DNA from: an uncultured Oligoflexia bacterium
Lineage (GTDB): Bacteria; Bdellovibrionota; UBA1018; CAYHWW01
Length of the DNA: 64,000 bases
Reading direction: 5' to 3'
Assembly (NCBI GenBank): GCA_964475985.1
Contig: CAYYYP010000005.1
Span: 15,269-79,268, forward strand
Shown in pieces: positions 9,621 to 31,077 of this stretch (the stretch's first letter is position 1; the number at the start of each line of letters is the position of its first letter). Below the pieces are notes generated by a model that worked only from the letters and a program-made list of their open reading frames with translations, made no database searches and was not told the origin of the DNA. The translations under genes and the position numbers were made by a program.

Positions 9621-9665
9621 ATGTGGTTTACAAAAACATTCATACCGTGAAAGAGTCTATCCCAC

Positions 9666-13459: not shown

Positions 13460-13463
13460 AAAA

Positions 13464-14393
13464 ATGGGGTCAAATTCAAGCAGGGAAATTATCACTACAC
13501 GTGTTTTAAATTTTCCGAAGGAAACTGTTTTTAAGGCGTGGGCCGATCCCGTGCACCTTGCTCACTGGTGGGGACCGGAAGGCTTTAAAAATATTTTTCA
13601 TGAATTTGATTTTCGTCCGGGCGGCAAATGGCGTTTCGTCATGCAAGGTCCCGATGGACGTAATTACGACAACGAAAGTGAATTCTTAGAAACTTCGAAT
13701 GGCGAACGAATTGTATTTAGGCACCTTTCCGATCCAAAATTCACGGTGACGGCAAATTTTGAGGAACTTAACGAAAAGCGCTCGAAACTCACCTGGACCA
13801 TGCTCTTTGATTCAGCCAAAGTTTGCGAAAGTTTGAAGTCCATCGTGATTCCCGCCAATGAACAGAACATGGTGCGACTTGAGGCCGAGCTTAATAAAAT
13901 GGCTTCCGGCGCGGTCTTTAGTTTATCGCGCAAACTGAGTGCCCCACGGGAACTTGTTTTTGATGCCTGCACAAATCCTGATCGTATGCAGCAGTGGTGG
14001 GGACCTAAAGGTGTCAACGTCGTCGCATCTAAGATGGATTTCAGAGCTGGAGGTTCATACCTTTACGGAATGAGCACGCCAGATGGCAAAACCATCTGGG
14101 GTAAGTTCGCCTACCGAGAAATTGAAAAGCCTGCTCGTCTGCTTTTTGTAAACAGTTTTTCGGATGAAAATGGTGGAGTGACTCGGCATCCGTTTGCAGA
14201 AAATTGGCCGCTCGAGCTGCTGAGTACATTTATGTTTTATAAGCAGGGCGATGAAACGGCATTTACCATTCGGTGGGAACCCTTAAATCCGACGGCTACG
14301 GAATTCAAAGCTTTCGCCGATGGCCATGCCTCCATGCACCAGGGTTGGAGTGGAACTTTGGATGAACTTACTCAGTATTTAAAGAAAGTTTAA
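13464..14393 (+). CDS. tandem SRPBCC (AHSA1/activator-of-Hsp90-ATPase-like) domain protein
   Basis: 309 aa with two repeats that are similar to each other (VHLAHWWGPEGF... / ...RMQQWWGPKGV...). This matches the AHSA1/SRPBCC fold pattern. Confidence 0.55.
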   Translation: MGSNSSREIITTRVLNFPKETVFKAWADPVHLAHWWGPEGFKNIFHEFDFRPGGKWRFVMQGPDGRNYDNESEFLETSNGERIVFRHLSDPKFTVTANFEELNEKRSKLTWTMLFDSAKVCESLKSIVIPANEQNMVRLEAELNKMASGAVFSLSRKLSAPRELVFDACTNPDRMQQWWGPKGVNVVASKMDFRAGGSYLYGMSTPDGKTIWGKFAYREIEKPARLLFVNSFSDENGGVTRHPFAENWPLELLSTFMFYKQGDETAFTIRWEPLNPTATEFKAFADGHASMHQGWSGTLDELTQYLKKV

Positions 14394-16185: not shown

Positions 16186-17107
16186 CTACACTTCTGGGGG
16201 CTGGTTCCCCTGAGGATTTCAACCTTTCATCCAATAACAAAAGGTTTCTTAGAATTTTCTGCTTTTGATTTGGGGCAGTTTCAGAGCTTCGATTTTTCAA
16301 AGACCATAACAGAGCCCCCACAAAACCCAAGGCCTGTTCTTGGCTTTCAATCAAACGGGCCGATAAAATAAGTGCTCTAACTTTTTTATTTTCAAGTACC
16401 GCCCGGCAAAGATCAAAAATGGAAGTTTGCGCTCCGTTGAAAACGACGGAAACCAAAGCATCCTTCGTTGCTACTAAAGAAGGGCTTAGAAAAAGCTCCA
16501 ATTTTTGGAGCTCCATCACAACCTGACTCAGGGTTTCAAACTCAAAACTTGAAAACCATTCCAGTAAGCTTGGTTCAAATTCCAAGGATGTTTGCGAAAC
16601 CAAATATCTAATCCACCTACTGCGCTCAAAATCCTTCGGTGACGTACAGTCCCAGAGCGCGTTGGCTTTTTTCAGCATTTGCGAAAGTTTTCGGCGCTGA
16701 TCCAATACCGCTGATTCAAAAATAAATATCGCAGGTTCCTGCGCGATTTCTTCAGAACTTAATCGGCTCAAGGTGTTGATACGTTTCGTAAGATCCGTCA
16801 AAAAACCTTGGGACTCCCCCAGCACCAAGGAATTCCTGATAAAGACTAACTTAGGCCCTGCTGAATTCCTGGCAGAAAAAAGGTCCACGCAAGCGACCTC
16901 ATCCAAAATTTCTACCCAAGTTTTTTCCTTGGCATCGAAAGTATTTAACGCGGTCAGGGAGGCATTTTTTTCAATTCCATGAAGTTTTAAAATCTGCTCT
17001 AAAAGTTCATTTCGACGGACCGATTCGTTGCCAAAAAGCCCGTAAACCAGGGTTTTGGTAAGCTTAGCGCGCTGAGGGTCCGGATGCTCCGTCTTTGCTG
17101 CCTTCAA
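16163..17107 (-). CDS. holA: DNA polymerase III delta subunit
   Basis: 314 aa with the N-terminal pattern LVYGLFGNESVRRNELLEQIL. It sits immediately downstream of lptE, as in the conserved lptE-holA pair. Confidence 0.6.
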   Translation of the reverse strand: MKAAKTEHPDPQRAKLTKTLVYGLFGNESVRRNELLEQILKLHGIEKNASLTALNTFDAKEKTWVEILDEVACVDLFSARNSAGPKLVFIRNSLVLGESQGFLTDLTKRINTLSRLSSEEIAQEPAIFIFESAVLDQRRKLSQMLKKANALWDCTSPKDFERSRWIRYLVSQTSLEFEPSLLEWFSSFEFETLSQVVMELQKLELFLSPSLVATKDALVSVVFNGAQTSIFDLCRAVLENKKVRALILSARLIESQEQALGFVGALLWSLKNRSSETAPNQKQKILRNLLLLDERLKSSGEPAPRSVDYFLSSL

Positions 17108-17745
17108 AAAGCCTCCATCATGGTGTCGTAGGAGTCAGCCGCAATGAGCAGGGAAATGTCGTGCAGAGCATTTTGAAACCTGCTCTCGTTAATGAGGACT
17201 GAAGTATTTCCTAAATCACCTGCGATATTATTTCCCGGATAGAGGCGGGACCTAGAAAATCCTTTTCCCCAAAGTACGGCGCCGTCCCGTCGTTTCAGAT
17301 AAAGCGTTACCCCAGCGGTGGCTTGATACTCAGATGCCACGATGAAGTTTGAAGGAAGTGGGGCCGTACCGGTCGGCGAGTTTTGATTGAGTTGGGTTGC
17401 GCCGGAGACGCTGGTTACACTGCTCTGGGCTAAGTCAATGCTGCCGGTCAAAACGGCATCCGCATCTTCCACCCGGTCGGTGAGCTGAACCCTGCCCTGC
17501 TTTGCGTATTCCTGAAGTAATGCGCTAGTAAAGGGCACTTCAAGGCCAGCCTTAAGCGTGTTGTTTTTCAAAGGGTAGATATAAAGTTTATTAATTTTTT
17601 CCCGTGACCAAATATTTTCGGGCGAACGTAGATGGTAACCGCATCCCGTTACGCCACTTAAAAACAAAATTAAAAAACCAAGGGGTAGCGCCCTACGAGA
17701 GAGAAATCCTAAGGGCTTTGATAACTTTTTCCAATTTACGATCAT
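17104..17745 (-). CDS. lptE: LPS-assembly lipoprotein LptE
   Basis: Lipobox LSGVTGC followed by GYHLRSP (the LptE CG[FWY]HLRG signature). The start chosen is the ATG at 17745, which overlaps the upstream gene's 3' end. The ORF is open to 17847. Confidence 0.65.
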   Translation of the reverse strand: MIVNWKKLSKPLGFLSRRALPLGFLILFLSGVTGCGYHLRSPENIWSREKINKLYIYPLKNNTLKAGLEVPFTSALLQEYAKQGRVQLTDRVEDADAVLTGSIDLAQSSVTSVSGATQLNQNSPTGTAPLPSNFIVASEYQATAGVTLYLKRRDGAVLWGKGFSRSRLYPGNNIAGDLGNTSVLINESRFQNALHDISLLIAADSYDTMMEAF

Positions 17746-18736
17746 CCAAACGAGCCTTATCACGATACTGATTCTCCAACTCCTTGAGAGCTTCAAGGGC
17801 TTTCTGCTGTGGGTCCTTGTGGGCCGACTTGGACATGAGATTATCAAAAATATTCGTAATGGCTACAATCCTTGCAAGGTCATAAATGGCAAGGCCCTTC
17901 ATTCCCTTAGGAAAGCCCGTCCCATCCAAAAATTCATGGTGCTGTGCCACGATCATAAGCACTTCAGAGGGGATCTCCCGAGCATTTCGGTTCATTCCTT
18001 CGAGGAGATCACGCCCAATATTGGGGTGCTCCAGCCATTCTGGGTCATCTTCCTGAATGAGCCCCTCGGCTTTAACGCTCAAGGCTGTTTTGCCAATGTC
18101 GTGCAGGAGACCGCCAATGGCTAAATGTTCCAAAATAACCTGGCTAGTGTAACCAAGACGCAATCCAACAAAAATGCTCGTAACCGATACATTCACGGCA
18201 TGATCGATGGCACCTTTACCAAACTTATGAAGGGAGGCAACATTGTTGATGACAAAAGGCTTATCCAAAAATGCGGTGACCAGCTCTCGCGAGCGCTGAA
18301 GGGAGAACTTAATGGCCTCCTGTTTGGCGTGGGCTTCAAAAAGTGAAAACACACTTTTTCGCAAATCCAACACCGCGCCACGAATCGGCGCTTCCGCTTC
18401 AGGAACTTCGGCAGGTCGACTCACTTTCTTTACCCCGGCCAAAATTTCTTCAGGCGTTTGTTTTTTCAGGTCTTTGATATCGTTATTCTCAGCCCAAAGG
18501 AGAAATTCCAATTTACGTTCTTCGGGAATAAATACGGTGCGGACTTGGTTGAATAAAAGTTTATCAAACTCGGCCGGACTCAACTCATCGCCTTGGGACT
18601 TATACTTTACTAGTTTATGCCGTAAGCACAGAAAAAGATCGCCCGGCAGAGGCTGGGACGCAAGGAGTCGCAAAGTTGGCCAGGAAAGCTGACACGAAAT
18701 CTTTGTTTCTTCAGATTCTTTTTTTTTTGGCATCAT
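17693..18736 (-). CDS. HD-GYP domain c-di-GMP phosphodiesterase with an N-terminal domain of unknown function
   Basis: 347 aa with GGLLHDIGK and HHEFLDGTGFP motifs. It begins 13 bp downstream of the pelG-fusion stop on the same strand. Confidence 0.8.
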   Translation of the reverse strand: MMPKKKESEETKISCQLSWPTLRLLASQPLPGDLFLCLRHKLVKYKSQGDELSPAEFDKLLFNQVRTVFIPEERKLEFLLWAENNDIKDLKKQTPEEILAGVKKVSRPAEVPEAEAPIRGAVLDLRKSVFSLFEAHAKQEAIKFSLQRSRELVTAFLDKPFVINNVASLHKFGKGAIDHAVNVSVTSIFVGLRLGYTSQVILEHLAIGGLLHDIGKTALSVKAEGLIQEDDPEWLEHPNIGRDLLEGMNRNAREIPSEVLMIVAQHHEFLDGTGFPKGMKGLAIYDLARIVAITNIFDNLMSKSAHKDPQQKALEALKELENQYRDKARLDDRKLEKVIKALRISLS

Positions 18737-18749
18737 TCTCCCACCTTCT

Positions 18750-21131
18750 TTAATTTTTAAAAAAACTTCCGTCTAAGGCCCGGCCGGTGACTAACCCTAA
18801 AAATCCGTGCTTTTTCAAAGCTTCCAGCGCTTTTGCAGTTTGTCCTCGCCCCGTTAAATATTCTACGCCTAAAATGAGCTTCCGAGGCAAAGACTGCGAT
18901 TGCAGTTTTTTGACGCAGGACAGTACCTCTATCTGTGGCCGCCAAGGGTTATCCTGCCAGTTTGATCCGAAATAAAATGTTGATTCCAGAGCCAGAAGAT
19001 CAAAACTTTCTAAAAATTTTTTCTGGACCTCAAACTCTTTGAAGGCCGCTAGTTCAAGGAAAAGGCAGGGCGCATTCTGAATTGCTAAAAGAGCGGGTTC
19101 ACTCCCCCAGATGGATTTCATTTTTGCCCGCAGATCAATCACCAACTCAGCCATTTGGGTTGCGCGCAATGCTTGCTCAGCCTTGGGAAAGCGGCCATAG
19201 GCGTCGATCAAATCTAAGTACACACCGTTGAATCCTGCATCGTGGATTTTCCGTAAGTAATCATAAAGCACCGCGCGCCACTGCGGATCCCAAAATTTAA
19301 GCAGGTGATTTTTTTTAAACCGTTTGTTTTCTGAAACCAGAAGGCCCCTTTGCTTTATGCCTTGAAAGTACCAGCGATACTCCTCCGCTTCCCCAACGCT
19401 GAGGTAGGCTAGACTCCGGTGGGGATCACTCGGCGCGGTGGCCGAAAGGGTTTTTAGAAGATTTTTATTGGGTTCAAGCAAACTGATATCAAGCACGTAA
19501 AGCGTGGTTTGCCGCGCCGGCCGGTTTGAAAGGCCAGTAGGATCACCTTGAAGCTGATATATCCATTTTTCTATTTTAGGAAGTACGGCAGCTGTGTCTA
19601 GGGGACGGGCCGTTACCGGACTTGAAAATAGGGGCAAGGCAATCAGCGCCCAGATGAAGGAACTTTTTAGACTTCTATTTCGCGAAAAGAATTTATGTTT
19701 TGATTTCTTTGCGGAAGCAAGCGGTTGACGCTGAAAAATTAGAGAGTGCAATCGTCCCAGGACGTTATTTAGGTCCGTTAGGGAAACCGTAAGGCAAACC
19801 AGTGCCGCAAAGGCATAACCCATTCCAAAATATTTTCCGTAGTTGCCGCCAATGAATTTTAAGGAGAGCAGCGTGCCCCCGAGGTTGAGCAAAAACAATA
19901 TCAGATAATTTTTAAGCGCCATGAAGGGTAGGTCGAAATACAAAATGAGTAAGTTTGTAATGAGTGCAAAGGCATGAAACATGCTCCCAAGAAGCCCAAA
20001 TCGAAATACAATCAAAGTTACGGCCGGCAGTTTAAAGTACTGGGTGATGGTGGCAGACGCGGAATAAGCTAGGGCCGTGATTAAAATCTGAAATAAGAAG
20101 AGCCATTTGAATTCGGTGCGTAAACCCTGCACCATACGTTGCCTCGCATCTTCAAGCATCGCCAAGGGTGCCTTTTCATGAATCAAGCCAAAATATTCGC
20201 GGTAACGCATGTAAAATTTCACTTCAATCTGCACTAGAAATAATGCCATGGCGGGCACGACAAAAAGATATCCTAAAAAAATTCCGGCATCGTAGGAGGT
20301 TGACTTAAATAAGCCGTAGGCAACTTTTTCGCGGGTATGGGAATTGGTCCAAAAAAGAATTTTGTCGCACCACACCCCCAGGGAATAAAAGAAACCCACA
20401 GCACTTAAGACCCACCTCGTTTTCCAAAATTCTAAAAAACTTTCGCTGTGGGCTACCTTCGGTGAAAGGGACGGAGAATGCGGGGATGTTTGGAATTCCA
20501 ATTGGACTTTGCGAATGAGAATACCGTCGATCAATAAGTTGCCTAAAATAAAGCTTGTGAGTAGCCAGTTCAGCCCACTTATTCCGAGCTTACCGCCCAT
20601 CCAGACAGCCGAAATACTTAAGGCAGCACCGGCGATAAAACCCCAAACGATGGATAAATAATCCTTAAGGGCGCCTAAGAAAATCATGCAAACCCATTGA
20701 CCCATCAGCACCGCAATGACGATGCCGCATAAAACTAAGCTCAAACCAGGAATTTTAAGCAAATAAAAAAAGATCAGTCCGAGGGCTAAACCTACTGCCG
20801 TCGTTCGCCAAAATACCCGTTTAAAAAAACTCCCAATGCCTTCAATATTTTTAAAATAAAGGGCGTCGGCAATAAAGCGGGTGATGACCATTTCAACCAC
20901 GCCAAACAAAACGAGTGAAAAAGCGTAGGAGTAATTCAGAATTACGCGGAAAACTTCCCCGGATTTAGGTTCAGGAAAACGTTTAGCCAAAGAAGAAATC
21001 ACGGCAATGGTAAGAATTGCCATGAGCCAAGGACCGGAAGAAACTACTACGGAACCTAGGAGGCCTTGAGTCCTTTGAAACCAATTTCCGTGTTTGATGG
21101 CCCGGTGGAGGCGAAAGCCTATTCCTGCCAT
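18750..21131 (-). CDS. pelG: PelG-like polysaccharide exporter (MOP/MATE-like multi-TM protein) fused to a C-terminal GH114-like (PelA-hydrolase-type) TIM-barrel domain
   Basis: The start MAGIGFRLHRAIK is PelG-like and is followed by about 12 hydrophobic helices. Next comes a basic segment plus an extra hydrophobic helix (KSKHKFFSRNRSLKSSFIWALIALPLFSSPVTA). The following roughly 290 aa carry GH114/DUF297-like motifs (LAYLSVGEAEEYRWYF; WDPQWRAVLYDYLRKIHDAGFNGVYLDLIDAY). It is a single uninterrupted ORF. Confidence 0.6.
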   Translation of the reverse strand: MAGIGFRLHRAIKHGNWFQRTQGLLGSVVVSSGPWLMAILTIAVISSLAKRFPEPKSGEVFRVILNYSYAFSLVLFGVVEMVITRFIADALYFKNIEGIGSFFKRVFWRTTAVGLALGLIFFYLLKIPGLSLVLCGIVIAVLMGQWVCMIFLGALKDYLSIVWGFIAGAALSISAVWMGGKLGISGLNWLLTSFILGNLLIDGILIRKVQLEFQTSPHSPSLSPKVAHSESFLEFWKTRWVLSAVGFFYSLGVWCDKILFWTNSHTREKVAYGLFKSTSYDAGIFLGYLFVVPAMALFLVQIEVKFYMRYREYFGLIHEKAPLAMLEDARQRMVQGLRTEFKWLFLFQILITALAYSASATITQYFKLPAVTLIVFRFGLLGSMFHAFALITNLLILYFDLPFMALKNYLILFLLNLGGTLLSLKFIGGNYGKYFGMGYAFAALVCLTVSLTDLNNVLGRLHSLIFQRQPLASAKKSKHKFFSRNRSLKSSFIWALIALPLFSSPVTARPLDTAAVLPKIEKWIYQLQGDPTGLSNRPARQTTLYVLDISLLEPNKNLLKTLSATAPSDPHRSLAYLSVGEAEEYRWYFQGIKQRGLLVSENKRFKKNHLLKFWDPQWRAVLYDYLRKIHDAGFNGVYLDLIDAYGRFPKAEQALRATQMAELVIDLRAKMKSIWGSEPALLAIQNAPCLFLELAAFKEFEVQKKFLESFDLLALESTFYFGSNWQDNPWRPQIEVLSCVKKLQSQSLPRKLILGVEYLTGRGQTAKALEALKKHGFLGLVTGRALDGSFFKN

Positions 21132-22756
21132 GGTAAACTCTCTTGATTTATCCCACTGATATCGACACCACAAATAAGTTCGTTATAAAACTTGTCATAC
21201 TGCTCAAAAAGTTCCTTTTCGTGGTAAAAATGGCCAGCCCTAAGCATTCCGGCCTGGGAGCACTCTTCCCAAAATAGATCTTCCATCATAAGGCGCATTA
21301 TGGATTGAGCAATCCCTAAGCCATCGCCTAAGGGAACGATAAGTCCGCTGGGTCCTAAAATACGATCGGCTTCCGATAACCCTAAAATCATTTCCCGGCA
21401 CGCACCCACATCGGTCGCCACTACCGGTACACCGGCCGATGAAGCCTCCAGAATTACCAGGGGCTGAGACTCTGAGATGCTGGTGAGCACCAAAACATCG
21501 GCGGTCTGCAAAACTTCCGTGGCAGGGAGTAGACCTTCGAATTTTATGAGCTGAGAAAGGCCAAGGATTTGCACCATTTCTTCGCACTCTTTTACATAAT
21601 CCTTCTCTTCATTGTGGGGTCCGACGATGCGGCAAAAAAATGAAATCGGTTCCGCTTGGCTGACTTGCAAATCAAAAAGTAACTTTATGGACTTGATAAG
21701 TAGTTTGATATCCTTAATGGAAACCACTCGGCCTAAGAAAAGAATTTCGAAGGGTCGTTTTTCGGCGCGTTTTTTTGGCCAAAGTGGATGCCGAGTTCTT
21801 ATGCCTTGGTAACGATTGTGTACGCCATTAGGAACCACAAAACACTTTTTGGGATCGGCGCCATCAAATACTTGCCGTTTACGATTGCCTCCGTGCAAAG
21901 TAACCACGCGCGAAGCACCGGCGTAGGCTAAAGCACTCAAGTTCCTAAAGACATTGATCCACCAGCTACGAAAATGTTTCAAAGGCTCAAAGGGAAGTTG
22001 CAGCAGAAGGCCAGGATCATAAAGCCAATTGGCTTCCCCCAATTCAATGGCGCGCTCATGAGCATAGATACCATGTTCCGTAACCATAAAGGGTGAAGCG
22101 TGCTGCATTGCCGCCAATATACCGCAAAGCCCCGCATATCCCGTACACATGGAATGGTACACTTTGGCGTTGGGGTAACTTAAATTGATGAGCCGCAGAA
22201 GCGGAATTTGGATGGCGCGCCAGGAATAAAAAAAGTCAAGAAAGGGCAAACCTTGTTTCATGGGGGATACCCGCTCGTATTCATCAACGATGACGTCCCA
22301 GGCGTCCTCGCTTTGCAAATGCCTGAGTACACTTTCCGAGGACATGCTTTTGGCAAACTTTTTAAGTTTAAATAAATCCTGTTTATTAAATTTAGCGTGT
22401 TGCAAATCCTCGGGACTTTGAAAAATATCAAATCCATCGTGAACGGAATTACCCTGGATCAGCGTCTGAAATTCCTGGAAGGAGGCCATGGCGGCTTGCA
22501 GATTCTTGGCGTTCAAGGCGCCGGTATCGGACGAAAATTCGTCAAACAGAAATACCTCCCTTAAGTGCAACACATTAGCCGGCAATTCGTACTGCATTGG
22601 CGGCAATTGATCGGAGCGTGAACCCAGGTAGAGAATTTCAAATGTGAGATGCGGCAAACCTTTGATCAAGGCGTGGGTCCAACTGGCCACTCCGCCGTAA
22701 ACGTAGGGGTAAGTGCCCTCTAGTATTAAGCAGACATCAGCCACGGGCCACCTCAT
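21119..22756 (-). CDS. pelF: PelF-like GT4 glycosyltransferase
   Basis: 545 aa. The N-terminus VADVCLILEGTYPYVYGGVASW is the PelF-specific DUF3492-like start. The C-terminal half is a GT4 fold. Confidence 0.75.
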   Translation of the reverse strand: MRWPVADVCLILEGTYPYVYGGVASWTHALIKGLPHLTFEILYLGSRSDQLPPMQYELPANVLHLREVFLFDEFSSDTGALNAKNLQAAMASFQEFQTLIQGNSVHDGFDIFQSPEDLQHAKFNKQDLFKLKKFAKSMSSESVLRHLQSEDAWDVIVDEYERVSPMKQGLPFLDFFYSWRAIQIPLLRLINLSYPNAKVYHSMCTGYAGLCGILAAMQHASPFMVTEHGIYAHERAIELGEANWLYDPGLLLQLPFEPLKHFRSWWINVFRNLSALAYAGASRVVTLHGGNRKRQVFDGADPKKCFVVPNGVHNRYQGIRTRHPLWPKKRAEKRPFEILFLGRVVSIKDIKLLIKSIKLLFDLQVSQAEPISFFCRIVGPHNEEKDYVKECEEMVQILGLSQLIKFEGLLPATEVLQTADVLVLTSISESQPLVILEASSAGVPVVATDVGACREMILGLSEADRILGPSGLIVPLGDGLGIAQSIMRLMMEDLFWEECSQAGMLRAGHFYHEKELFEQYDKFYNELICGVDISGINQESLPWQE

Positions 22757-23969
22757 GACTTGACCAGTGGTTCAAGCAGGCGGCAGCCCTTACGAATAGG
22801 GGTCCAGAGAGGCCTATTTCGTCAAAGACCCATTTTGAAAAATGAAGGACCTCAGATGATTTAGGACGATCTAAGTTCAAGATCGCAAGAATGGTCTGGG
22901 CCATTTCAAGATTTTTTACCGTCGTAGCGTTTCGTAACAATGAGAAAAGAATTTCAAACGGAATTCTTCGTCCCGAAATATTCTTATTTTGTAAACTTCC
23001 TTGCAGTAGCCTTAGGAGTTGAAGCTGTAATTCCGGTTTGAGTTCTTGCTCAAGTAAATTCATTAACACGTCCCGGAAGAGCCACGCCTGCACCCGCAGA
23101 AAATCCATTAATAGATTTGCCTTTGCGGTATCCGGATGCATGCCTAGGGCGAGCACTTCTTTCCAGTACTTGAGGGACCACTTCACCGGTTTTAAGAAAT
23201 TAAGGATTAGCCTTAGGAAATGTTCATCAAAATCAAAAATTTTTATGGGTTCATAAGCCTGCTGCGTTACGGAAAGGGCAATCTCCCGAGCCAAAATCTC
23301 ACGATAGCGGCTCAAAATTTGGTTGGTTTTGTCCGGCAGGCTGCTTAGAGACATGCTTTTCAACTCAGCGTGAAAAATTTCCACCTGATTGCTCCGCGCA
23401 CCACAGATGAGCAACTCTTGGCAAAGCCCTTCCACCGCCTCCTCCATAAAGCCTGCTTTAAAAAACTGAAACCGTTCCAGAATCAGACGCTGAATTCCCG
23501 GGTCCTTTAAAAGATAGGGACGTTTTGCGAGATGATGGAAAAAAACCGCTAAGAATTCTACCCCACCCCCTTTGCATGATTCATAAAATCTCAGGACCGA
23601 TTCCGGCTGCAACGCCCTAATTCCAAAAAAAGACTTTAAGATATTAAGGCTTAAAAAACTTGTGGGTTGGACTCCGGGAAGCGCTAGTGCCGAAATTAAA
23701 GCGCTAAACCACCCTTCGCATTCCCTAAGCCCTAAAGTGCCTAGGTTCACCAGAGCTTGCATCACCTCAATCATCGCCCCCTGAACCACGAGGGTTTCCC
23801 GGGAAAAAATTTTCCCGTACTCCTGAGTCGGAAAGGCCTTAGGATTTTCGGGCAACCTTAACCAGGCGATTCGCCTTACCAGCTCATCCGGATCCTGGAG
23901 TAATTTTGTTAGCTCCGAAGTTTCAAGAATCGCTTGGTCTTGCCATAAAAAATTCAAATCCCTATTCAT
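22737..23969 (-). CDS. hypothetical soluble helical protein inside the pel-like operon
   Basis: 410 aa with no obvious transmembrane segment and no recognised domain. It is Leu-rich and helical. It overlaps neighbours by 4 to 20 bp, which is operon-style packing. Confidence 0.4.
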   Translation of the reverse strand: MNRDLNFLWQDQAILETSELTKLLQDPDELVRRIAWLRLPENPKAFPTQEYGKIFSRETLVVQGAMIEVMQALVNLGTLGLRECEGWFSALISALALPGVQPTSFLSLNILKSFFGIRALQPESVLRFYESCKGGGVEFLAVFFHHLAKRPYLLKDPGIQRLILERFQFFKAGFMEEAVEGLCQELLICGARSNQVEIFHAELKSMSLSSLPDKTNQILSRYREILAREIALSVTQQAYEPIKIFDFDEHFLRLILNFLKPVKWSLKYWKEVLALGMHPDTAKANLLMDFLRVQAWLFRDVLMNLLEQELKPELQLQLLRLLQGSLQNKNISGRRIPFEILFSLLRNATTVKNLEMAQTILAILNLDRPKSSEVLHFSKWVFDEIGLSGPLFVRAAACLNHWSSHEVARG

Positions 23970-24757
23970 TTAAAGTTTTGCTCCAGCCAAAAGAGAACCT
24001 GCTCGCGAATTTCATCGGGCAATTTATCGCTGCCGCCACAACGACGCACCAGCTCCTGGCAGCATCGTTTTACCCCCGGAAAGTCCGATTGCATAAAATA
24101 GGCTTCCGCTTTCCAAAACCAGCCATTAAACCAATCCGGCGCAAAAACCATGGCCTGGTCAAAACAGAAAATCGCCTTTTCCAAAAGATTTTCCTGAAGG
24201 TGTATTTTTCCCAACTGTCGCCAGTAATAGGTATTATCCGGATTGCTCTCCACTGCCGCCTGCATGAGTTTTCTCCCAATTTGAATGTGGGAGTACGTTA
24301 CTTCTGGATCCATAAGTCCCGTGCGGTAAGCGATCATCAGTGATTCGATTAAGTTGTAAAGCTCCTGCGGCGAGGGCTTAGCGACGTCAGGGTAGGAGCT
24401 TAAAAGTTTCACCTCGTTTAACCAACGCTTTTCAAAATAAGCTAAGGCCTGCGTCGCTAAATAACAAATTTCATAATCTGGATCGCGCTGGGCCACTCGC
24501 AAGAGTATGACGCTATCCCGAGAGAATCGCCTCTTTAAGCGTCCAATGACTTCACGCTTCACACTTTTACTGCCTCCGCGAATGAGATCACTTAGGGATT
24601 GCAGCGACATGTTTTCTGAACTTAAGGCATCTTTAGCGAAAATCTCGGAATAACTTTTAGCCAATAGTTCGAGGGATCGTTCCTGAAAAAAACGCTCATC
24701 GGCCGCTTGGGTATCATAAAATTCCTGGAGTGCCCGGCCGCGGATGTTTAAGCTCAC
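23966..24757 (-). CDS. TPR-like repeat protein, possibly a PelE analogue lacking transmembrane helices
   Basis: 263 aa with TPR-like helical repeats (YYWRQLGKIHLQENLLEKAIFCFDQAMVFAPDWFNGWFWKAEAYF). No hydrophobic anchor. Confidence 0.45.
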   Translation of the reverse strand: MSLNIRGRALQEFYDTQAADERFFQERSLELLAKSYSEIFAKDALSSENMSLQSLSDLIRGGSKSVKREVIGRLKRRFSRDSVILLRVAQRDPDYEICYLATQALAYFEKRWLNEVKLLSSYPDVAKPSPQELYNLIESLMIAYRTGLMDPEVTYSHIQIGRKLMQAAVESNPDNTYYWRQLGKIHLQENLLEKAIFCFDQAMVFAPDWFNGWFWKAEAYFMQSDFPGVKRCCQELVRRCGGSDKLPDEIREQVLFWLEQNFK

Positions 24758-26310
24758 GATGGAGTTATCCCAGTAAGACCATTTTTATTGATATAACTCT
24801 TCCACGATAAATTTTTATCCTCACTCTTCACGGACTCTGGGTTCACCTCGATTCGCTTCATACCAAGCGCCGGCAAACCAGTAATAAATTGCCTTAAACG
24901 CGCATATTCATGCGTAACTGATTCATCCAACGCACGTAAAGTTGCTCCGTCTACACCTCGGGCAAATAACTTAAAGGAAGCATCCTTCGGATCACTATAA
25001 AACGTGGCTTGCCCCGCGAGACTTAAGTGCGCGATGCCGTCGCTTAAGGCCCGAGAAAACGCTTTTCGAAATACGATTTCACGTGCCTCTAAAAAATCGA
25101 CATCGGGCCACTCCGGGGTCCATTCCAAAAGACTCAAATTGATTTTTGTTTTTTTTGCGAGCAACCAATCTTCTTCGGCCCGTACATCTAAAACCCTTGT
25201 GGAAAAACATTGGCCGATAAAGTCCCAAAAATCATCCTCCTGATTTTGGGTTAAGCCCTGGCTCTTGCGGAGGGCCACGCCAAACCACCGAGAAAGTTCG
25301 CGCAATGCCGCAAAGTTAGAACTTTTATAATTCATGAACTGAAAGCTGTGGAACAGGATGACCCCTAAAATATTTTGGGAATCATCCATAAGCGGAACGA
25401 CCACGGGGTACCGTGCACGACTCCCCTTAGAAGATCCGGCTGCGTTCTCCCCGGCGTAGAGCTGAAATGTAAATACATCCCGGTTAGAAATTGCGTATCC
25501 AATCTCACTAATCTCCGAAAATTCCTTCCGAGGAATTTCCTTAGGAAATCGTTTTTGATCCGCCACAACGGGCGCCAAGCGCTTGAGCCCCGGATGTTCA
25601 AAACGATAGATCGCAAAATCCTCCTCGCTAAAATATTCCGAGAGAAACCGGTAAAAACGTACGCCTAAAAGTTCGGTTGAGATATTAAAGGATTCTCGGC
25701 CAAAACGAAAAATTTCAAGTGCGCTCTGCACTCTGGCCGCAAGCCTTCGTTCCATGTTCTGGCTTTCGGCAGTGAGACGTTGTCGCACCACTGCAGATTC
25801 CCCTAAGTTGTGAAGTAATTTTTGGTTTTCATCTTCAATGCCCTTAGTTTTCCGCCGAAAAGCATCTCCCACTACGCCAAAGGCAAAGCAGGTTAAGAGA
25901 AACGAAAGCGGAAACTTAAAGTAATTTGCGGAAAATACGCTCTCAACCTCAAGCACATCGAGCCTACTGGCTTCGTAAAAAAAATAAAACCCACCGTAGA
26001 CCACTCCCAAAAGCAGGGCAGGTTTTAGACCAGCAAGTACCGAGAGGATGCCCAGGCAAAAAAGATAAGGGTGTGGGTTCACGTCAATATAGGCCGGATT
26101 TCCGCCATTCAGTAATCCTAAAATCAGTCCGGGAAGCAGTCCCACCAGAAAGGCCGAAAGGGAATGGGTCATGGTCGGGAAATATTTTTGAATCTTAAAA
26201 CCACCAGCTAAAAATCCCCTTGGCGACGTGGACTCCTGCAAATCCTCCAGTGGGTTCCGTGGCGGAACCGGGGGCGTTGGCGTTGAAGAGCTGGGATGTG
26301 TAGAATCCAT
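24754..26310 (-). CDS. pelD: PelD-like c-di-GMP receptor (N-terminal transmembrane helices + GAF-like + degenerate GGDEF)
   Basis: There are four hydrophobic helices in the N-terminal 150 aa, followed by a soluble region of about 350 aa. Its position between PelB and PelE/F-like genes matches pel gene order. The start may instead be MTHSL (26172). Confidence 0.5.
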   Translation of the reverse strand: MDSTHPSSSTPTPPVPPRNPLEDLQESTSPRGFLAGGFKIQKYFPTMTHSLSAFLVGLLPGLILGLLNGGNPAYIDVNPHPYLFCLGILSVLAGLKPALLLGVVYGGFYFFYEASRLDVLEVESVFSANYFKFPLSFLLTCFAFGVVGDAFRRKTKGIEDENQKLLHNLGESAVVRQRLTAESQNMERRLAARVQSALEIFRFGRESFNISTELLGVRFYRFLSEYFSEEDFAIYRFEHPGLKRLAPVVADQKRFPKEIPRKEFSEISEIGYAISNRDVFTFQLYAGENAAGSSKGSRARYPVVVPLMDDSQNILGVILFHSFQFMNYKSSNFAALRELSRWFGVALRKSQGLTQNQEDDFWDFIGQCFSTRVLDVRAEEDWLLAKKTKINLSLLEWTPEWPDVDFLEAREIVFRKAFSRALSDGIAHLSLAGQATFYSDPKDASFKLFARGVDGATLRALDESVTHEYARLRQFITGLPALGMKRIEVNPESVKSEDKNLSWKSYINKNGLTGITPS

Positions 26311-28972
26311 AACTCAAATGTAAACTCATCGTACCTAAAACAAAATCACCAAGGTCAAATTCCAAATATTCTGTGGTATTTCCCGCAACTTCCCGTTGAG
26401 GCCCGTTCTCAAAATTTTTGCCCCATCCGCCAGAGATCTTAGGGCCGCTCGCAAAATAACCAGACTGACGCAAAGCGCCGTTAGTTGCATTGCGACACAA
26501 GCTGTCCCATGCACAGAAAATTTCAAATGAAATAAAGCCACCGCCAAATGCCATCCGTTGAAGCATCAGGTTTTCCAGGGACTCACCGCTAGCCAATCGA
26601 CCGTTGCCTACCCATCTCAACCACTGTGCCCAGGGACCCACCGAGAATCCTAATGTGTTTTCAGGTTTCCCAAAGGAAATTCTTGAACTGGACTCCAAGC
26701 CAAAGCCCTGAGCAAAAGCAAAATGATCTTCAGAATTATTTACGTGGGTGAATCGAACGCGTGCCCCTTGAACAAAAAGTATCCAAGGATGCAAAATGAC
26801 TTCCCCATAACCCTCAAGGGTAGACTCCGAGGCTCCGGCGCCCACGAGTGAACGAGAAATATTTAAGGGGGCAGAGAGGTTTGCCTCTAACATACCGTAA
26901 CGTAGTGCTCCGTAGGCGGCCATTAACCTGGTCTCAAGTCTTGGCCTGAATCCACGCCAATCGCCGAGCTCGGTGAGTCGCACACCCGCGCGCATTTCCC
27001 AAGCAAGCGTAGGGCTCATCGTGTAGCTCACAAAAGCTTCCGGAGAAATGAGATGAAGGTGGTTGTCCCAAAATGACTCCTGACTCACGATGACCCCTAA
27101 CCGCCAAGCAGTCTGTTTTAGCGGTGTATGAAAAATCAGGTTTTTTTCCGTCGTAGAAAATTCATCTAAAAACACGCCATTAAATTCAAAACCAAAGTAA
27201 TGCGATTGCGGCAATGCCAGTTCATTTACCAAAATCGCTTCCGCCGTTTTTGTACCCTCAGCGGCTTGAAGTTCAACGGATTTTGCGGCCACTTCATTTC
27301 TTTTTGCGAGATCAATTTCTTGCAAACGGGAAACGACGTCAACCAAAGTTAGTCGTTCGGCAGGTAACCGTTTTTCTATCTCTGCTTCAAGCCGCGGCAA
27401 TTGTGGTCCGATTAGCCTGGCCTCCGTATCGGTTAGCCCACCAGCCTCATACTTTGCGATGAAACCGATGGCCGTAAGTACCGGTGCATTTGAGAAAGTA
27501 AAATTTTTAAGCTGGCCCTGAAATTCAAGCAGACCAGAAGCCTCTCCACTCCAAAGGTACCTTAAAAAAAGCTGTTCAAGCACGTGGGTTTTTAATTTGG
27601 TAAGCCCTGGCCTGGCTTCAAGTTTTCGCCAAAGCTCCATGTATGACTTTCTTGCTTCCTCATTTTTTTGCTGAGCCTCAAGGCTAGCCACCAGGAGTCG
27701 GTAGTCCTTCCAAAGTTCTTCCCCGCTCAAAATCCCCGCGGATTGGGCTAAGGCGTTAGGGAAGGGAGTTAAAAGTTCTAAGAACTTAAGTAGGAAATAG
27801 GACCGTTGCTTCAGTCGCTTCATTGCGGCTTTTGGATCTTCACCCGCAACTAAGGCTTGCATGATTTGTTCAGCAAGTTGTGGGTCATGGAAATCTAATG
27901 CTGCTTGGGCAAAGCTTCGCCATGTTTCCCGCGAAATCTTTAAATCCCCGATCAAGTTATCATCAAAAAGAAATTCCCTAAGGGCTTGCCGAGCGACCCG
28001 CGCTCCATCGGCTCCGATACCGGCTTGCACGTGCAGGGCATCAAGTTTGAGCTGCAAAAAGTCAATTCCGCGCTGAGTAAGCAGAGCCTGGTGTGTAAGC
28101 GCTAGTTGAAAAAGCGAGTAAGCTTCGCCCTTAAGCGCAGGAAATTTAGCGGCATCAAAGGCAATATCCAGAAATGCGTGGATCTCGGCATTCCATTCAC
28201 GTACGGAAATTTTTTGGCAATAGTTCAAGTAGTCCAGCAGGGCACGGCGCAGCTGTGAGAAGTCACTTAAGTTCGTGTCTCGAAAGTTTCGTTCAGCGCG
28301 GCTTACCCAATAATTTAGTCGGAAAATCGTAATTCCGTAGGCCTTAACGCTTTTGTCATCACCCAGAATTTCAAACGCACGCTTAAAGTTTCCTTGGCTT
28401 GCAAGGGTACGAAGCCACCGGTTGAAATCATCAAGGGGTAAAAGACTTTGGCGCCAAATTTTTTCATAAACCCGCAGCGCATCGGGCGCCGATTGCAGCC
28501 ACTCATAATCATGGGCTAACCGCAGATAACGGGCGGGCCCTGACTGCGGAGCCGTCACCACCTCTTCCCCCCTGAGATTTTGCACGTGCGGTAACGGAAT
28601 TTTATTATCCCATAGATATTCCTCAACTCGGGCGGCTTCCAGCGCCCGGCCCTGCCACCTCAGTTGCCGCAACAGACGCTCCCAATAGTTTTTATTGTTA
28701 GGCCTGAGTTTCGTAAGGTCATAAAGAATTTTTATGGCCTCTGAAACATTGCCTTCCACTTCCAGCACATCCACCATTTGCCTTAACGCCACGGCATCTG
28801 GCATTTTCGTAAGCATAGCCCGCCGGAGAATCGGCTCGGCAAGTTCTGGCTGAAAGCTTTGAAAACGCAAGGCCGCTAACTCGGTGTCACTTGGCATGGT
28901 AAAAAACAGACTCAGCGCACCCATGCTAAAAAAAGCCAAAATTAAACTAGGATCCATGAAATTTCGTTTCAC
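26195..28972 (-). CDS. pelB: PelB-like TPR scaffold with a C-terminal outer-membrane beta-barrel
   Basis: 925 aa with an N-terminal signal/anchor and many TPR-like helices. The C-terminal roughly 300 aa show alternating hydrophobic beta-strand character and end ...GIFSWWF (a terminal aromatic). Confidence 0.55.
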   Translation of the reverse strand: MKRNFMDPSLILAFFSMGALSLFFTMPSDTELAALRFQSFQPELAEPILRRAMLTKMPDAVALRQMVDVLEVEGNVSEAIKILYDLTKLRPNNKNYWERLLRQLRWQGRALEAARVEEYLWDNKIPLPHVQNLRGEEVVTAPQSGPARYLRLAHDYEWLQSAPDALRVYEKIWRQSLLPLDDFNRWLRTLASQGNFKRAFEILGDDKSVKAYGITIFRLNYWVSRAERNFRDTNLSDFSQLRRALLDYLNYCQKISVREWNAEIHAFLDIAFDAAKFPALKGEAYSLFQLALTHQALLTQRGIDFLQLKLDALHVQAGIGADGARVARQALREFLFDDNLIGDLKISRETWRSFAQAALDFHDPQLAEQIMQALVAGEDPKAAMKRLKQRSYFLLKFLELLTPFPNALAQSAGILSGEELWKDYRLLVASLEAQQKNEEARKSYMELWRKLEARPGLTKLKTHVLEQLFLRYLWSGEASGLLEFQGQLKNFTFSNAPVLTAIGFIAKYEAGGLTDTEARLIGPQLPRLEAEIEKRLPAERLTLVDVVSRLQEIDLAKRNEVAAKSVELQAAEGTKTAEAILVNELALPQSHYFGFEFNGVFLDEFSTTEKNLIFHTPLKQTAWRLGVIVSQESFWDNHLHLISPEAFVSYTMSPTLAWEMRAGVRLTELGDWRGFRPRLETRLMAAYGALRYGMLEANLSAPLNISRSLVGAGASESTLEGYGEVILHPWILFVQGARVRFTHVNNSEDHFAFAQGFGLESSSRISFGKPENTLGFSVGPWAQWLRWVGNGRLASGESLENLMLQRMAFGGGFISFEIFCAWDSLCRNATNGALRQSGYFASGPKISGGWGKNFENGPQREVAGNTTEYLEFDLGDFVLGTMSLHLSYGFYTSQLFNANAPGSATEPTGGFAGVHVAKGIFSWWF

Positions 28973-31077
28973 AGGCGTCGCACCTCGATGGTTTGCGGCA
29001 CGGACTTTACCTCAAAATCCAAAGCGAGGATTCGTTTATCCTTAGACCGCACTTTACCTCCTACTACCGTAACCCCTTCAAGCGAAGTGTCTCTCGCCTC
29101 AAGAATTAAGGGACCTCGTGCCCAAGCCGCTAATTTCACCCGTATACCTTTCTTTGTCGGCAGCACATCAAAGGCGTCCACAACTCCCCCAACACTTTGC
29201 AACGCAAATGGAAGGGAGGAATTCATAAACCGGCAATGCGGACTTCGGTAGATTTGAACTTTAAGGTTTTGTCGATGCGGCATGGGATGCAAGTAAGTTT
29301 TATTTTTAATCCGAACAGATCCCATGAAATCCTTGGACGACACACAGAAGCCTGGGTCCTCCAGTCGAAAATCCGCCACGTTACCCACATTGCGAATCTC
29401 CAGAGTGTTGGGTTTACCCAACTCATGGTAAAAATCAGTCTCTAAAAATCCCTCGACGGCGCGTATATAAGTGGTCGGCGGCACCAGGGCAATCTCCTCG
29501 GAGTGAGCTTTAAACCAACGAATGATATTTTTTAATGCCAGGAGGGATTGCGGTCTTTCACCTGAGTAAAAATGAAAATACGCATTGGCCGGTTTCAATG
29601 TGAAACCCAAGGGTGAGTTAAGGCCGGTATTTTCATAGGTTTGAATGACACTTTCAAATCCGCGGTAATTTTTTGTAAACCCATCAGTGTAAATGAAGTC
29701 ATTGGCGTTTCCAGAAAACACCTGGAAGCCCGAGGCCCAAGGCCTCCCAAGTGGCGCCAAAAAAGCCAAGGAAGGAAACACCGTATCAAATCTAGAATCA
29801 CCGCCGTTTAAGTTATAAAGTCCGGCGGCCTTCGTCATTCTCATTGCCCGCTCCCCCGGAACGCAGCCGCCCGACCAGTAAATCGTTTCAACCTCAGATT
29901 CTTTTTTTTGCAAAAGCTTCGCAATGGCGCTGCGGGATTTGAGGATCTCTATCTCAAGGTCTATTTTCTCGCGCGAACCATCATCAAAACTGGTCGTACC
30001 CCTCATCCAATTCAGAGGATGAAAAAAAGTATGCGTAGCAAACTCTACATTTTTTAAATTTCCAAAACTTTTTACAATGGACTCTGTTCGTTCATTCCCC
30101 AGGTGCCGGCTTAAGACTTCGCTTGCGATAAAGGAGACGCCAAAGGGAATGTCAGGATTTCTCAGGAGAATTTCATCCCGGATCACTTCGCCGGAGAGGG
30201 GCTCTGGTTGTTTTTCAAAATGCGCTTCCGAGGAAAAACCATCACCATCGGTGTGTAAAAAAGCAATCCTGCGACCGTTCAGAACCGAAACGTCAGGAAC
30301 GATCATTTCTTTCGGTAAACCTAAAGCCCGTTGCAAAAATAATATGGGGTTTACAACCCATTGCCGCCTTTCTGAGCCTACGTCACTGAAGAGGCCGAAG
30401 TTCCCGTAGGCCCAAGAGAAGTTTTTTGCGGAGTGCGCGATCTGACTGAATAAAATCGATTCCTGGGCGCCCTTAGGCGAACCCATGGCGAGAAGCGTCT
30501 CGCCCGCATGGGCCCTAACTCTTAAAGTAACAAAGTCGTCCACCCACTCCGGGGACTTTCTCTCAAAATCTAAAACGGCCGCCTGATTTTTAATCACCTT
30601 CAAACCAAAGGGTTTGGTTTCAAAGTGCTGATACTCCGCCCCCCATCGCAAAAAGAATTCGTTTAGATTTGCGGCCGGGATCTGTGATAAAAAACCAAAG
30701 CTTCCAAAGGCGATCCACTTAAGTCTGGTCTGCGCTAAAGAATTGAGCCAACGGAAAAGTTTTTGATGATTGACCAGACTTTCCGAAAAAAAAAGGGTCG
30801 CTACGGCGCGAACTTTATTGTCCTGAATCAATTCCGAAGCAGGTGGCAACGTCTGGGTATCAATGTCGATGAGGCGGGTGCGCATCCCCAGCAACTGCAG
30901 AGGGAACTCTAGGGCAAGGCTCGCGGGGTTATCCGAAATACTGCCCGATTCCTTAGAGGACCAGAGGCAGATCACTTCCCTTGGAAAAGGAAGAGACGCT
31001 GAAAAGGCAAACCGCGGAAAAAAATCTACCAAAATCAAACAAATGAAAAAGATTTTTATTTGATTTTTTTTCCCCAT
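28969..31077 (-). CDS. pelA: PelA-like polysaccharide deacetylase (CE4) lacking the N-terminal GH114 hydrolase module
   Basis: 702 aa with a signal peptide. It has CE4-like motif 1 (AFLHTDGDGF) and motif 2 (ATHTFFHP). This length fits the reductase-like, CE4 and jelly-roll parts of PelA without the hydrolase domain. Confidence 0.55.
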   Translation of the reverse strand: MGKKNQIKIFFICLILVDFFPRFAFSASLPFPREVICLWSSKESGSISDNPASLALEFPLQLLGMRTRLIDIDTQTLPPASELIQDNKVRAVATLFFSESLVNHQKLFRWLNSLAQTRLKWIAFGSFGFLSQIPAANLNEFFLRWGAEYQHFETKPFGLKVIKNQAAVLDFERKSPEWVDDFVTLRVRAHAGETLLAMGSPKGAQESILFSQIAHSAKNFSWAYGNFGLFSDVGSERRQWVVNPILFLQRALGLPKEMIVPDVSVLNGRRIAFLHTDGDGFSSEAHFEKQPEPLSGEVIRDEILLRNPDIPFGVSFIASEVLSRHLGNERTESIVKSFGNLKNVEFATHTFFHPLNWMRGTTSFDDGSREKIDLEIEILKSRSAIAKLLQKKESEVETIYWSGGCVPGERAMRMTKAAGLYNLNGGDSRFDTVFPSLAFLAPLGRPWASGFQVFSGNANDFIYTDGFTKNYRGFESVIQTYENTGLNSPLGFTLKPANAYFHFYSGERPQSLLALKNIIRWFKAHSEEIALVPPTTYIRAVEGFLETDFYHELGKPNTLEIRNVGNVADFRLEDPGFCVSSKDFMGSVRIKNKTYLHPMPHRQNLKVQIYRSPHCRFMNSSLPFALQSVGGVVDAFDVLPTKKGIRVKLAAWARGPLILEARDTSLEGVTVVGGKVRSKDKRILALDFEVKSVPQTIEVRRL

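Follow-up and report, generated by a model that had tools for sequence, protein, structure and literature searches.

In Pseudomonas, the hydrolase and the deacetylase that share the labor on the exopolysaccharide Pel in the periplasm are parts of one protein, PelA. That protein (structures 5tcb and 9cgy) consists of an N-terminal hydrolase domain of family GH166 followed by a mixed α/β domain, a CE21 deacetylase domain, and a β-rich domain, and it interacts in the periplasm with PelB (PMC12022489). In Bacillus cereus the functions of PelA are instead split, with the pelDEA_DAFG operon encoding a deacetylase-only PelA and with a separate, divergently transcribed gene, BCE_5582, encoding the hydrolase (PMC13254593). 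Described here is a different arrangement, found within a 64,000-nucleotide stretch of DNA from an uncultured Oligoflexia bacterium (GenBank assembly GCA_964475985.1, contig CAYYYP010000005.1, positions 15,269 to 79,268 of the forward strand), the whole of which is referred to as ‘the window’. Here a predicted hydrolase of family GH191 is fused to the C-terminus of the inner-membrane Pel exporter, PelG, and the PelA-like protein of the same operon lacks a hydrolase domain.

PelG has been described as a 12-helix bundle of the MOP superfamily, and in B. cereus the deacetylase (PelA_DA) has been modeled in complex with it, being proposed to dock via one transmembrane helix and thereby to couple export to modification (PMC13254593). 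B. cereus is Gram-positive, however, and its docking partner is a deacetylase that associates non-covalently, whereas the cell considered here is apparently diderm and the covalent partner is a hydrolase. As in Pseudomonas, a periplasmic hydrolase and a deacetylase would act together on Pel, at least as read from the genes, but the hydrolase belongs to another CAZy family and is found on the inner-membrane exporter rather than as the N-terminal domain of PelA.

Family GH191 itself has until now consisted of two isolated proteins, TmGH191 (TM1410; structures 2aam, 9eux, and 9euz) and Env-GH191 (9ep5), both soluble and single-domain and both studied out of genomic context, going by those portions of the defining paper that are drawn upon here (Roth et al. 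2025, PMC12054363). The same portions report that Env-GH191 degrades Pel, favoring galactosamine (GalN)-rich stretches, and they make no link to pelG. As to fusions, the consulted parts of a survey of other exopolysaccharide systems describe BcsZ-BcsC in Zymomonas as well as a glycosyltransferase (GT)-PgaB fusion (Bundalovic-Torma et al. 2020, PMC7112194). These are alike with the present case in that a hydrolase or modifying enzyme has become joined to a transport component through merger of neighboring genes, and they differ in belonging to cellulose and poly-N-acetylglucosamine systems and in having other partners.

A single PelG-GH191 reading frame

The minus strand of the window is open without interruption from 18750 to 21173, per the list of its open reading frames (ORFs), and the ATG at 21131 is taken as the start of the fusion gene because homologous PelG proteins all begin with MAGIGF. 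The resulting protein of 793 residues (Table 1) displays two Pfam domains. PelG (PF16933) is matched at residues 1-466 over the whole of its profile, positions 1-452 of 452, with an E-value of 1.3e-96 and 324.7 bits versus a cut-off of 29. Glyco_hydro_114 (PF03537) is matched at residues 522-787 (E 2.3e-14; 53.6 bits versus a cut-off of 27). The approximately 327 sense codons which are additional to PelG, and which carry a significant domain match, are far beyond what would be expected by chance. The same 793-residue protein is called identically on the NCBI contig. A preliminary description of this DNA had claimed just such an ORF, running with no stop codon through the linker; its coordinates proved exact, and the peptide strings that it quoted are indeed present in the translation. 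The accession which it named for checking the hydrolase, PF03659, is not the GH114 model, however, and the model which does match is PF03537.

A second strain provides evidence that the frame is real. An independent Logan assembly (L001; run SRR14932553) encodes a protein, P0001, of the same length and 98% identical to the fusion. The two assemblies differ at 108 positions over 4400 bp, and across the fusion ORF their DNA is 97.6% identical, with zero indels. Among the codons of the fusion, 56 differ, 40 of them synonymously and 16 non-synonymously, and T513P is the sole change seen within the linker. Ratios of non-synonymous to synonymous substitution (dN/dS; Nei-Gojobori, two strains) come to 0.086 (PelG) and 0.156 (GH191), that is, both halves of the fusion are under purifying selection. 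Separate translation of the hydrolase in turn seems unlikely, as no in-frame ATG, GTG, or TTG is found between L461 and the hydrophobic core that precedes the hydrolase.

Table 1. Features of the fusion gene and of its operon and neighbors, in window coordinates (slash, candidate cleavage position; TPR, tetratricopeptide repeat).
Feature	Position	Strand	Extent	Basis or remark
pelG::GH191 fusion ORF	18750..21131	(-)	793 aa plus stop codon	single ORF, two Pfam domains
PelG exporter domain	19734..21131	(-)	residues 1-466, 12 hydrophobic segments	PF16933, full profile
Basic cytoplasmic tail/linker	19665..19763	(-)	residues 457-489	9 Lys/Arg in 33 residues, A-rich DNA
Hydrophobic segment SSFIWALIALPLFSSP	19617..19664	(-)	residues 490-505	extra (13th) membrane segment, or h-region of an internal signal peptide
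Candidate signal peptidase I site	19605..19616	(-)	V506-T-A508/R509	by eye, -3/-1 rule
GH191-type (β/α)8 hydrolase domain (predicted)	18753..19586	(-)	residues 516-793	PF03537, TIGR01370, profile, AlphaFold2, Foldseek
Putative nucleophile D640 (YLDLID)	19212-19214	(-)		alignment to TmGH191 D156
Putative acid/base E716 (LALEST)	18984-18986	(-)		alignment to TmGH191 E225
HD-GYP-type (HD_5) protein	17693..18736	(-)		immediately downstream of fusion; PF13487, E 3.6e-19
pelF glycosyltransferase	21119..22756	(-)		NCBIfam NF038011, 428.5 bits versus cut-off 100
Protein with no family assigned	22737..23969	(-)	410 aa	between PelE-like gene and pelF
PelE-like TPR protein	23966..24757	(-)		position, TPR matches, weak similarity
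Putative PelD-like membrane protein	24754..26310	(-)		GAF_3 E 0.003, below cut-off; syntenic tblastn matches
Putative PelB-like protein, N-terminal TPR	26195..28972	(-)		position, weak TPR matches, syntenic similarity in L002
PelA-like modification enzyme without hydrolase domain	28969..31077	(-)	702 aa	α/β, deacetylase, and β-rich domains

Identity of the hydrolase domain

The C-terminal domain is, as predicted by both sequence and fold, a GH191-type enzyme. A single-sequence search of solved structures returned TM1410 (E 9.2e-14) and Env-GH191 (9ep5; E 2.5e-11) well ahead of the PelA hydrolase domain (E 0.04). With a profile built from an alignment of 58 hydrolase homologs, the same order is seen: TM1410 (2.3e-76), 9ep5 (6e-60), the PelA hydrolase 5tcb (3e-14), and then the GH114 enzyme Ega3 (1.3e-7). 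An AlphaFold2 model of residues 471-793 (mean predicted local distance difference test score, pLDDT, of 86.2; predicted template-modeling score, pTM, of 0.83) displays a (β/α)8-type pattern. The top matches to that model in Foldseek are 9ep5, 9euz/9eux, and 2aam, with E-values of ~1e-17 to 1e-15 and target template-modeling (TM) scores of 0.69-0.76 (9ep5, E 1.9e-17 and TM-score 0.76; 9euz, TM-score 0.76), followed by the PelA hydrolase domain (5tcb, 1.2e-12) and only then by GH114 enzymes. The described GH191 proteins thus are its best matches in sequence as well as in fold, even though identity with the fused domain is only ~21%, and the Asp/Glu pair aligns too. That is, D640 and E716 of the fusion are invariant across the 58-sequence alignment and, by counting along a HMMER alignment, match Asp156 and Glu225 of TmGH191, named as its putative active-site pair in the part of the GH191 paper used here (PMC12054363).

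Two other assignments were considered and rejected. A GH114 enzyme proper, i.e., of the Ega3 type, is disfavored, since in sequence and fold comparisons alike GH191 and GH166 both come out ahead of Ega3 and FsGH114. A GH166 module moved over from PelA is disfavored given how far 5tcb lies behind GH191 in the profile and Foldseek comparisons. The earlier reading of a GH114-like TIM barrel hence holds insofar as PF03537 is matched, a (β/α)8 fold is predicted, and the putative catalytic Asp and Glu are present, but the family in the strict sense is GH191 rather than GH114. The suggestion that this is PelA's own hydrolase relocated does not hold, PelA's being GH166. The fused domain is the sole GH191-like ORF of the 64-kb window.

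A PelA-like protein without a hydrolase domain

The preliminary description was correct as well in its claim that the 702-residue PelA-like protein is without a hydrolase. No match to PF03537 was found in that protein by Pfam scan, and it aligns with PelA only outside of the hydrolase domain. With phmmer, the alignment to the full-length PelA structure, 9cgy, spans chain positions 440-757, and with a profile made from an alignment of the protein plus seven homologs it extends over chain positions 246-833 (E 9.4e-125). The crystallized construct begins at residue 37, and what is covered is PtPelA residues ~282-869. The hydrolase domain of PtPelA comprises residues 37-292 and its mixed α/β domain residues 293-498 (PMC12022489), so the alignment begins where the hydrolase domain ends. 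The protein accordingly corresponds to the last three domains of Pseudomonas PelA. An AlphaFold2 model of it (pLDDT 71) gives, with Foldseek, one strong match, 9cgy (E 7.3e-33), and no TIM-barrel glycosidase among the significant fold matches. The deacetylase looks active to go by its residues: D277, D279, H349, and H353 are invariant in the alignment of homologs, and these correspond to the catalytic and metal-binding residues D517, D519, H589, and H593 of PtPelA, i.e., the D-x-D and H-x3-H residues. Homologs of this PelA-like protein are few (580-778 residues) and most are without PF03537, though one, P0374 (871 residues), retains it.

Related operons and the origin of the fusion

The five closest relatives of the hydrolase that are encoded by genes of their own are informative, through their genomic contexts, as to how the fusion arose. 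In four cases, a GH191 gene whose product is secreted or a lipoprotein sits as the terminal gene of a pel operon; the fifth and more distant relative, P0129, is not linked to pel. In L005 (GCA_030149295.1; pelG 8604-10004, GH191 10001-10864), in L006 (a ‘Bdellovibrio sp.’ metagenome-assembled genome, GCA_054684275.1; pelG 8610-10004, GH191 10001-10894), and in L087 (pelG 8610-10004, GH191 10001-10915), the GH191 gene overlaps pelG by 4 bp, stop over start, as is typical of translational coupling. In L003/L004 a 377-residue gene separates the two. These are operons of the same type, i.e., PelB-like, PelD-like, PelE-like, PelF, PelG, and then GH191, with PelF 36-37% and PelG 31-35% identical to those of the window for operons such as those of L005, L006, and L087, and with PelD-like and PelE-like proteins also held in common. 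The pel-linked stand-alone GH191 proteins are 32-34% identical to the fused hydrolase.

The likeness extends to what precedes the enzyme. Stand-alone hydrolases open with a signal peptide or a lipobox (MRFLILVSLFAFSC..., LIKYLIILIMLTGC..., MRALAVALLLVCAPASA/Q...), and the hydrophobic segment of the fusion is placed just as these are. A W-x-YQLQ motif follows approximately 15-25 residues after the signal in the stand-alone proteins, and in the fusion it lies equally far behind the internal segment. What differs is that the related proteins are separate, several of them being lipoproteins, whereas here there is one polypeptide in which a 33-residue basic tail takes the place of the stop and start. 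Unfused PelG relatives stop 10-11 residues past a conserved RQP motif, a point at which the frame of the fusion instead continues, and the linker DNA, which is A-rich and encodes Lys, Arg, Asn, and Ser, may be the former 3' end of pelG plus intergenic spacer.

The ancestry of the fusion, to go by these loci, is that of two adjacent genes rather than of ‘domain shuffling’ from PelA as had been envisaged. In the ancestral state, persisting in the related operons, pelG would have been followed by a separate gene, coupled to it in translation, whose GH191 product was secreted or anchored by a lipid. The simplest history, at identities of ~35%, then is one in which the stop codon of pelG and the start codon of the hydrolase would have been lost, giving rise to one 793-residue protein within which the old 3' end or spacer would now serve as the basic linker.

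As a separate observation on these loci, the pel-linked GH191 gene of L003 is immediately followed (10988-14227) by a gene in which a Ser/Thr protein kinase and an nSTAND/AAA_16 NTPase are joined (1079 residues).

Linker, topology, and the possibility of cleavage

A hydropathy scan with our own script finds 12 hydrophobic segments within residues 27-456 of the fusion, the PelG part of which has 38% identity with P0002, an unfused PelG. With the N-terminus set inside, short loops contain by hand count 32 cytoplasmic versus 10 periplasmic Lys plus Arg. Between PelG and the hydrolase is found ...FQRQPLASAKKSKHKFFSRNRSLKSSFIWALIALPLFSSPVTARPLD..., that is, the basic tail and then a further hydrophobic segment, which the preliminary description had likewise noted. 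As 12 predicted PelG helices are followed by a basic tail and then by one additional crossing of the membrane, the hydrolase domain should be periplasmic, a location which was claimed previously and with which both the helix count and the positive-inside rule agree.

The hydrophobic segment is short. Kyte-Doolittle hydropathy is 2.46 over its 11-residue core, FIWALIALPLF, and 1.45 over 19 residues. The core has a Pro inside of it and Ser-Ser on either side, and then comes P-V-T-A/R-P. A cleavable Sec signal possesses a positively charged n-region, an h-region of 7-15 residues, and small residues at -3 and -1. Read by eye, the fusion possesses an n-region with 9 Lys plus Arg, the above h-region, and SSPVTA/R as c-region, which looks like a cleavable Sec signal peptide, presumably as inherited from the stand-alone hydrolase, and not like a 20-residue anchor. 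Short hydrophobic segments with a small-x-small site following are usually cut by signal peptidase I. Because the core is only 11 residues long, and because a canonical V-x-A site comes after it, we slightly favor release of the hydrolase beside PelG by signal peptidase I, in the style of a polyprotein, over permanent tethering. The ‘signal-anchor’ proposed earlier hence is retained as a hydrophobic segment but is uncertain as a permanent anchor.

The principal alternative is that the hydrolase stays covalently tethered. In that case an uncleaved 13th transmembrane helix would pack against PelG, with the active site held at the mouth of the exporter, and the polymer would be trimmed or controlled in its length while emerging; this was the model of the preliminary description. 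Such tethering is a serious possibility, though one to which we would give somewhat less than an even chance. It gains from the membrane attachment of the nearest stand-alone relatives, among which P0122, P0123, and P0125 have a lipobox Cys, as well as from the anchor-like N-termini of many other stand-alone relatives. It gains also from the single transmembrane helix of B. cereus PelA_DA, predicted to lie on PelG helices 9, 10, and 12 (PMC13254593), from the two PelG proteins (P0323 and P0358) in which a 13th transmembrane segment precedes an extracytoplasmic domain, and from the residues at +1 (Arg) and +2 (Pro), which may disfavor cleavage. It is less easily squared with an 11-residue core that contains Pro and is flanked on both sides by Ser-Ser, with a 19-residue hydropathy falling short of the threshold of 1.5 that found 11 of the 12 PelG helices, and with the canonical small-x-small site which follows.

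Weighing the interpretation

Taken as a whole, it is quite probable that what is seen here is a genuine fusion of neighboring genes by which a periplasmic Pel hydrolase is delivered at the exporter. The protein would consist, in order, of a 12-helix PelG with both ends cytoplasmic, the Lys/Arg-rich tail, what was once a signal peptide, and then the GH191 barrel, with the hydrophobic segment crossing the membrane once more during insertion so as to place the hydrolase in the periplasm. There the hydrolase would act upon partially deacetylated Pel, an α-1,4-linked polymer of N-acetylgalactosamine and GalN, replacing the function of the N-terminal domain of Pseudomonas PelA, which the PelA-like protein here lacks. 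If a preference for deacetylated stretches such as that of Env-GH191 is common to the family, then that action would come after that of the PelA-like deacetylase. Whether tethered or cleaved, the fusion would enforce 1:1 co-synthesis of exporter and hydrolase along with delivery at the site of export. A physical coupling of export with trimming therefore is plausible.

A number of observations weigh against this explanation, in one part or another. As to the enzyme, the NCBIfam model for the MJ1477/TM1410 family, TIGR01370, gives 85 bits versus a cut-off of 181.25, implying either that the domain is a divergent member of the family or that the model is narrow. As to its substrate, activity on Pel has been reported for only one GH191 member, with TM1410 inactive on those substrates tried, again as given in the portions of the GH191 paper drawn upon (PMC12054363). 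As to topology, this comes from hand-made hydropathy and a positive-inside count, the AlphaFold2 model of the C-terminal part shows the linker with low confidence and no helix, and the cleavage site was picked by eye, its +1 and +2 residues being not ideal for signal peptidase I. As to retention, the fusion is carried by two closely related sequences only, too few to speak for retention over the long term. Lastly, L002, which encodes the nearest PelG without a fusion (P0002), lacks a GH191 gene immediately behind pelG. Its operon otherwise has the same layout, including a 702-residue PelA-like gene, and a non-homologous gene follows pelG instead; that gene was tried as a divergent hydrolase and rejected, since it displays neither similarity nor a Pfam match.

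Set against the delivery of a working hydrolase is the idea that the fusion, though existing in the DNA, is a recent and neutral or mildly harmful read-through, such that the hydrolase is nonfunctional as fused or else is made from an internal TTG at L461. This would fit with the confinement of the fusion to one species-level lineage, with a linker that resembles translated A-rich spacer, and with the finding that P. aeruginosa with an inactivated PelA hydrolase still makes Pel and biofilm (PMC9894940). The TTG at residue 461 is indeed in frame, with a weak GGGA upstream. It lies inside of the end of PelG, however, has poor Shine-Dalgarno spacing, and would result in an unusually long n-region, of 29 residues. 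The hydrolase part, moreover, retains the putative catalytic Asp and Glu together with all 21 positions that are invariant in the family, and its dN/dS between the two strains is 0.156. Such an accident strikes us as improbable.

That a stop codon lost or a frameshift introduced in sequencing or assembly has merged two genes within the linker, as one might suspect given the separate, 4-bp-overlapping genes of relatives and the out-of-frame TAA and TAG triplets of the A-rich linker, is very unlikely indeed and largely refuted, because L001, from another sample, reads through the linker in the same frame with the one substitution there, no indel anywhere in the ORF, and purifying selection on both halves.

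Rarity of the architecture

The genuine fusion for which we argue appears to be very rare. A word-indexed search through 5.8 billion clusters yielded 225 PelG homologs; among the best 120 of these, P0001 alone has PF03537. When 1.84 billion cluster representatives were scanned exhaustively with HMMER, the best 150 matches included no PelG-GH191 fusion other than P0001, the only one of them to score with both domains as a fusion should; very divergent fusions falling below ~140 bits would be missed by such a scan. A scan of genome contigs with the fusion protein gave no match. No PelG-hydrolase fusion was found in the literature, including in those portions consulted of the Bundalovic-Torma et al. 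2020 survey (PMC7112194) and of the GH191 paper, which agrees with the preliminary description's not being aware of the arrangement as a described one. PelG, GH191 glycosidases, and a PelA whose functions are divided, for which Bacillus provides an example, are each of known kind. Both the covalent PelG-GH191 architecture and the clade of pel operons combining a hydrolase-less PelA with a GH191 that is coupled to pelG appear, within the literature searched, to be undescribed.

Other elongated PelG proteins do exist. P0283 (646 residues) joins PelG to a cytoplasmic HATPase_c_2 domain, which is anti-sigma-kinase-like, and in P0323 (722 residues) and P0358 (1032 residues) a 13th hydrophobic segment precedes an extracytoplasmic domain of no assigned type. 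The GH191 profile matched none of the long PelG proteins, these three included. Six others, P0024, P0039, P0049, P0058, P0243, and P0250, were considered as hidden fusions and rejected, as their tails are acidic and of low complexity, without domains. These six are 708-831 residues long, with tails of 250-370 residues that are rich in Pro, Ala, Glu, and Thr and in which brief sequences, for example ‘TATE(A/I)G’ or ‘VTATDV’, recur; P0049 and P0058 are annotated by NCBI as from Planctomycetota.

Implications

The presence of GH191 genes within pel operons supports Pel as the natural substrate of this family, and it gives a genomic home to what, in the consulted portions of the defining paper, are two isolated proteins. 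It implies too that pel operons of the Gram-negative type can split the two activities of PelA, as Bacillus does, with the hydrolase placed next to the inner-membrane exporter, or in this case on it, and not on a periplasmic PelA. The fusion might be read further as a ‘Rosetta stone’, that is, as indicating that throughout this clade of diderm pel operons with hydrolase-less PelA the GH191 protein belongs physically, as a subunit, to the inner-membrane PelDEFG export complex, with an N-terminal helix or a lipid anchor docking it on PelG. This we offer only tentatively, as a minority prospect. Were it true, then cutting of chains or control of their length would take place at the inner-membrane exit instead of on a PelA-PelB complex of the Pseudomonas type, and the newly defined GH191 family would gain a physiological role. 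A natural covalent PelG-hydrolase would be a handy reagent as well, predicting contact between PelG and hydrolase in unfused relatives, with the practical limit that the fusion is confined to one uncultured lineage. It may, in addition, offer a natural internal signal peptide within a bacterial polytopic membrane protein.

Other genes of the operon and window

The start of pelG is overlapped by 13 nt by pelF, and the same 13-nt overlap is seen in L002. We infer the PelB-like and PelD-like labels from position, weak TPR or GAF matches, and synteny; the true start of pelD is probably downstream of that listed, as the listed ORF overlaps pelB by 116 nt. The PelE-like protein has tblastn matches in syntenic position in L005, L006, L087, and L002. 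Neither Pfam, NCBIfam, nor PDB provides a match to the 410-residue protein, and comparison of the PelD-like, PelB-like, and 410-residue proteins with the PDB gave no useful matches. In related operons the position of the 410-residue protein is held by one of 655-680 residues with weak or faint HEAT-repeat matches, and a response-regulator gene comes after pelB. No gene for a PelC-like lipoprotein is visible in the operon.

The HD_5 protein encoded immediately downstream of the fusion is likely a cyclic di-GMP (c-di-GMP) phosphodiesterase. Its gene has the same position in L001 (3101-4141), and a related HD gene flanks the operon of L002 (70-1245). The presence of an HD-GYP-type gene beside both the fusion and the L002 operon suggests local control of the pel operon by c-di-GMP.

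An Rfam scan of the window was empty. GlyA, scanned for the sake of taxonomic placement, had matches of only 58-66%, scattered across many phyla. A diderm cell is suggested by MlaD, which is encoded in the window, along with an LptE-like ORF at 17104-17847, the latter read by eye from its translation and unconfirmed by search. Also within the window, on the plus strand at 10106-13459, is a 1117-residue ORF which matches CcsB, a protein of cytochrome c biogenesis, solely over its C-terminal 230 residues (852-1085) and which thus is possibly another fusion.

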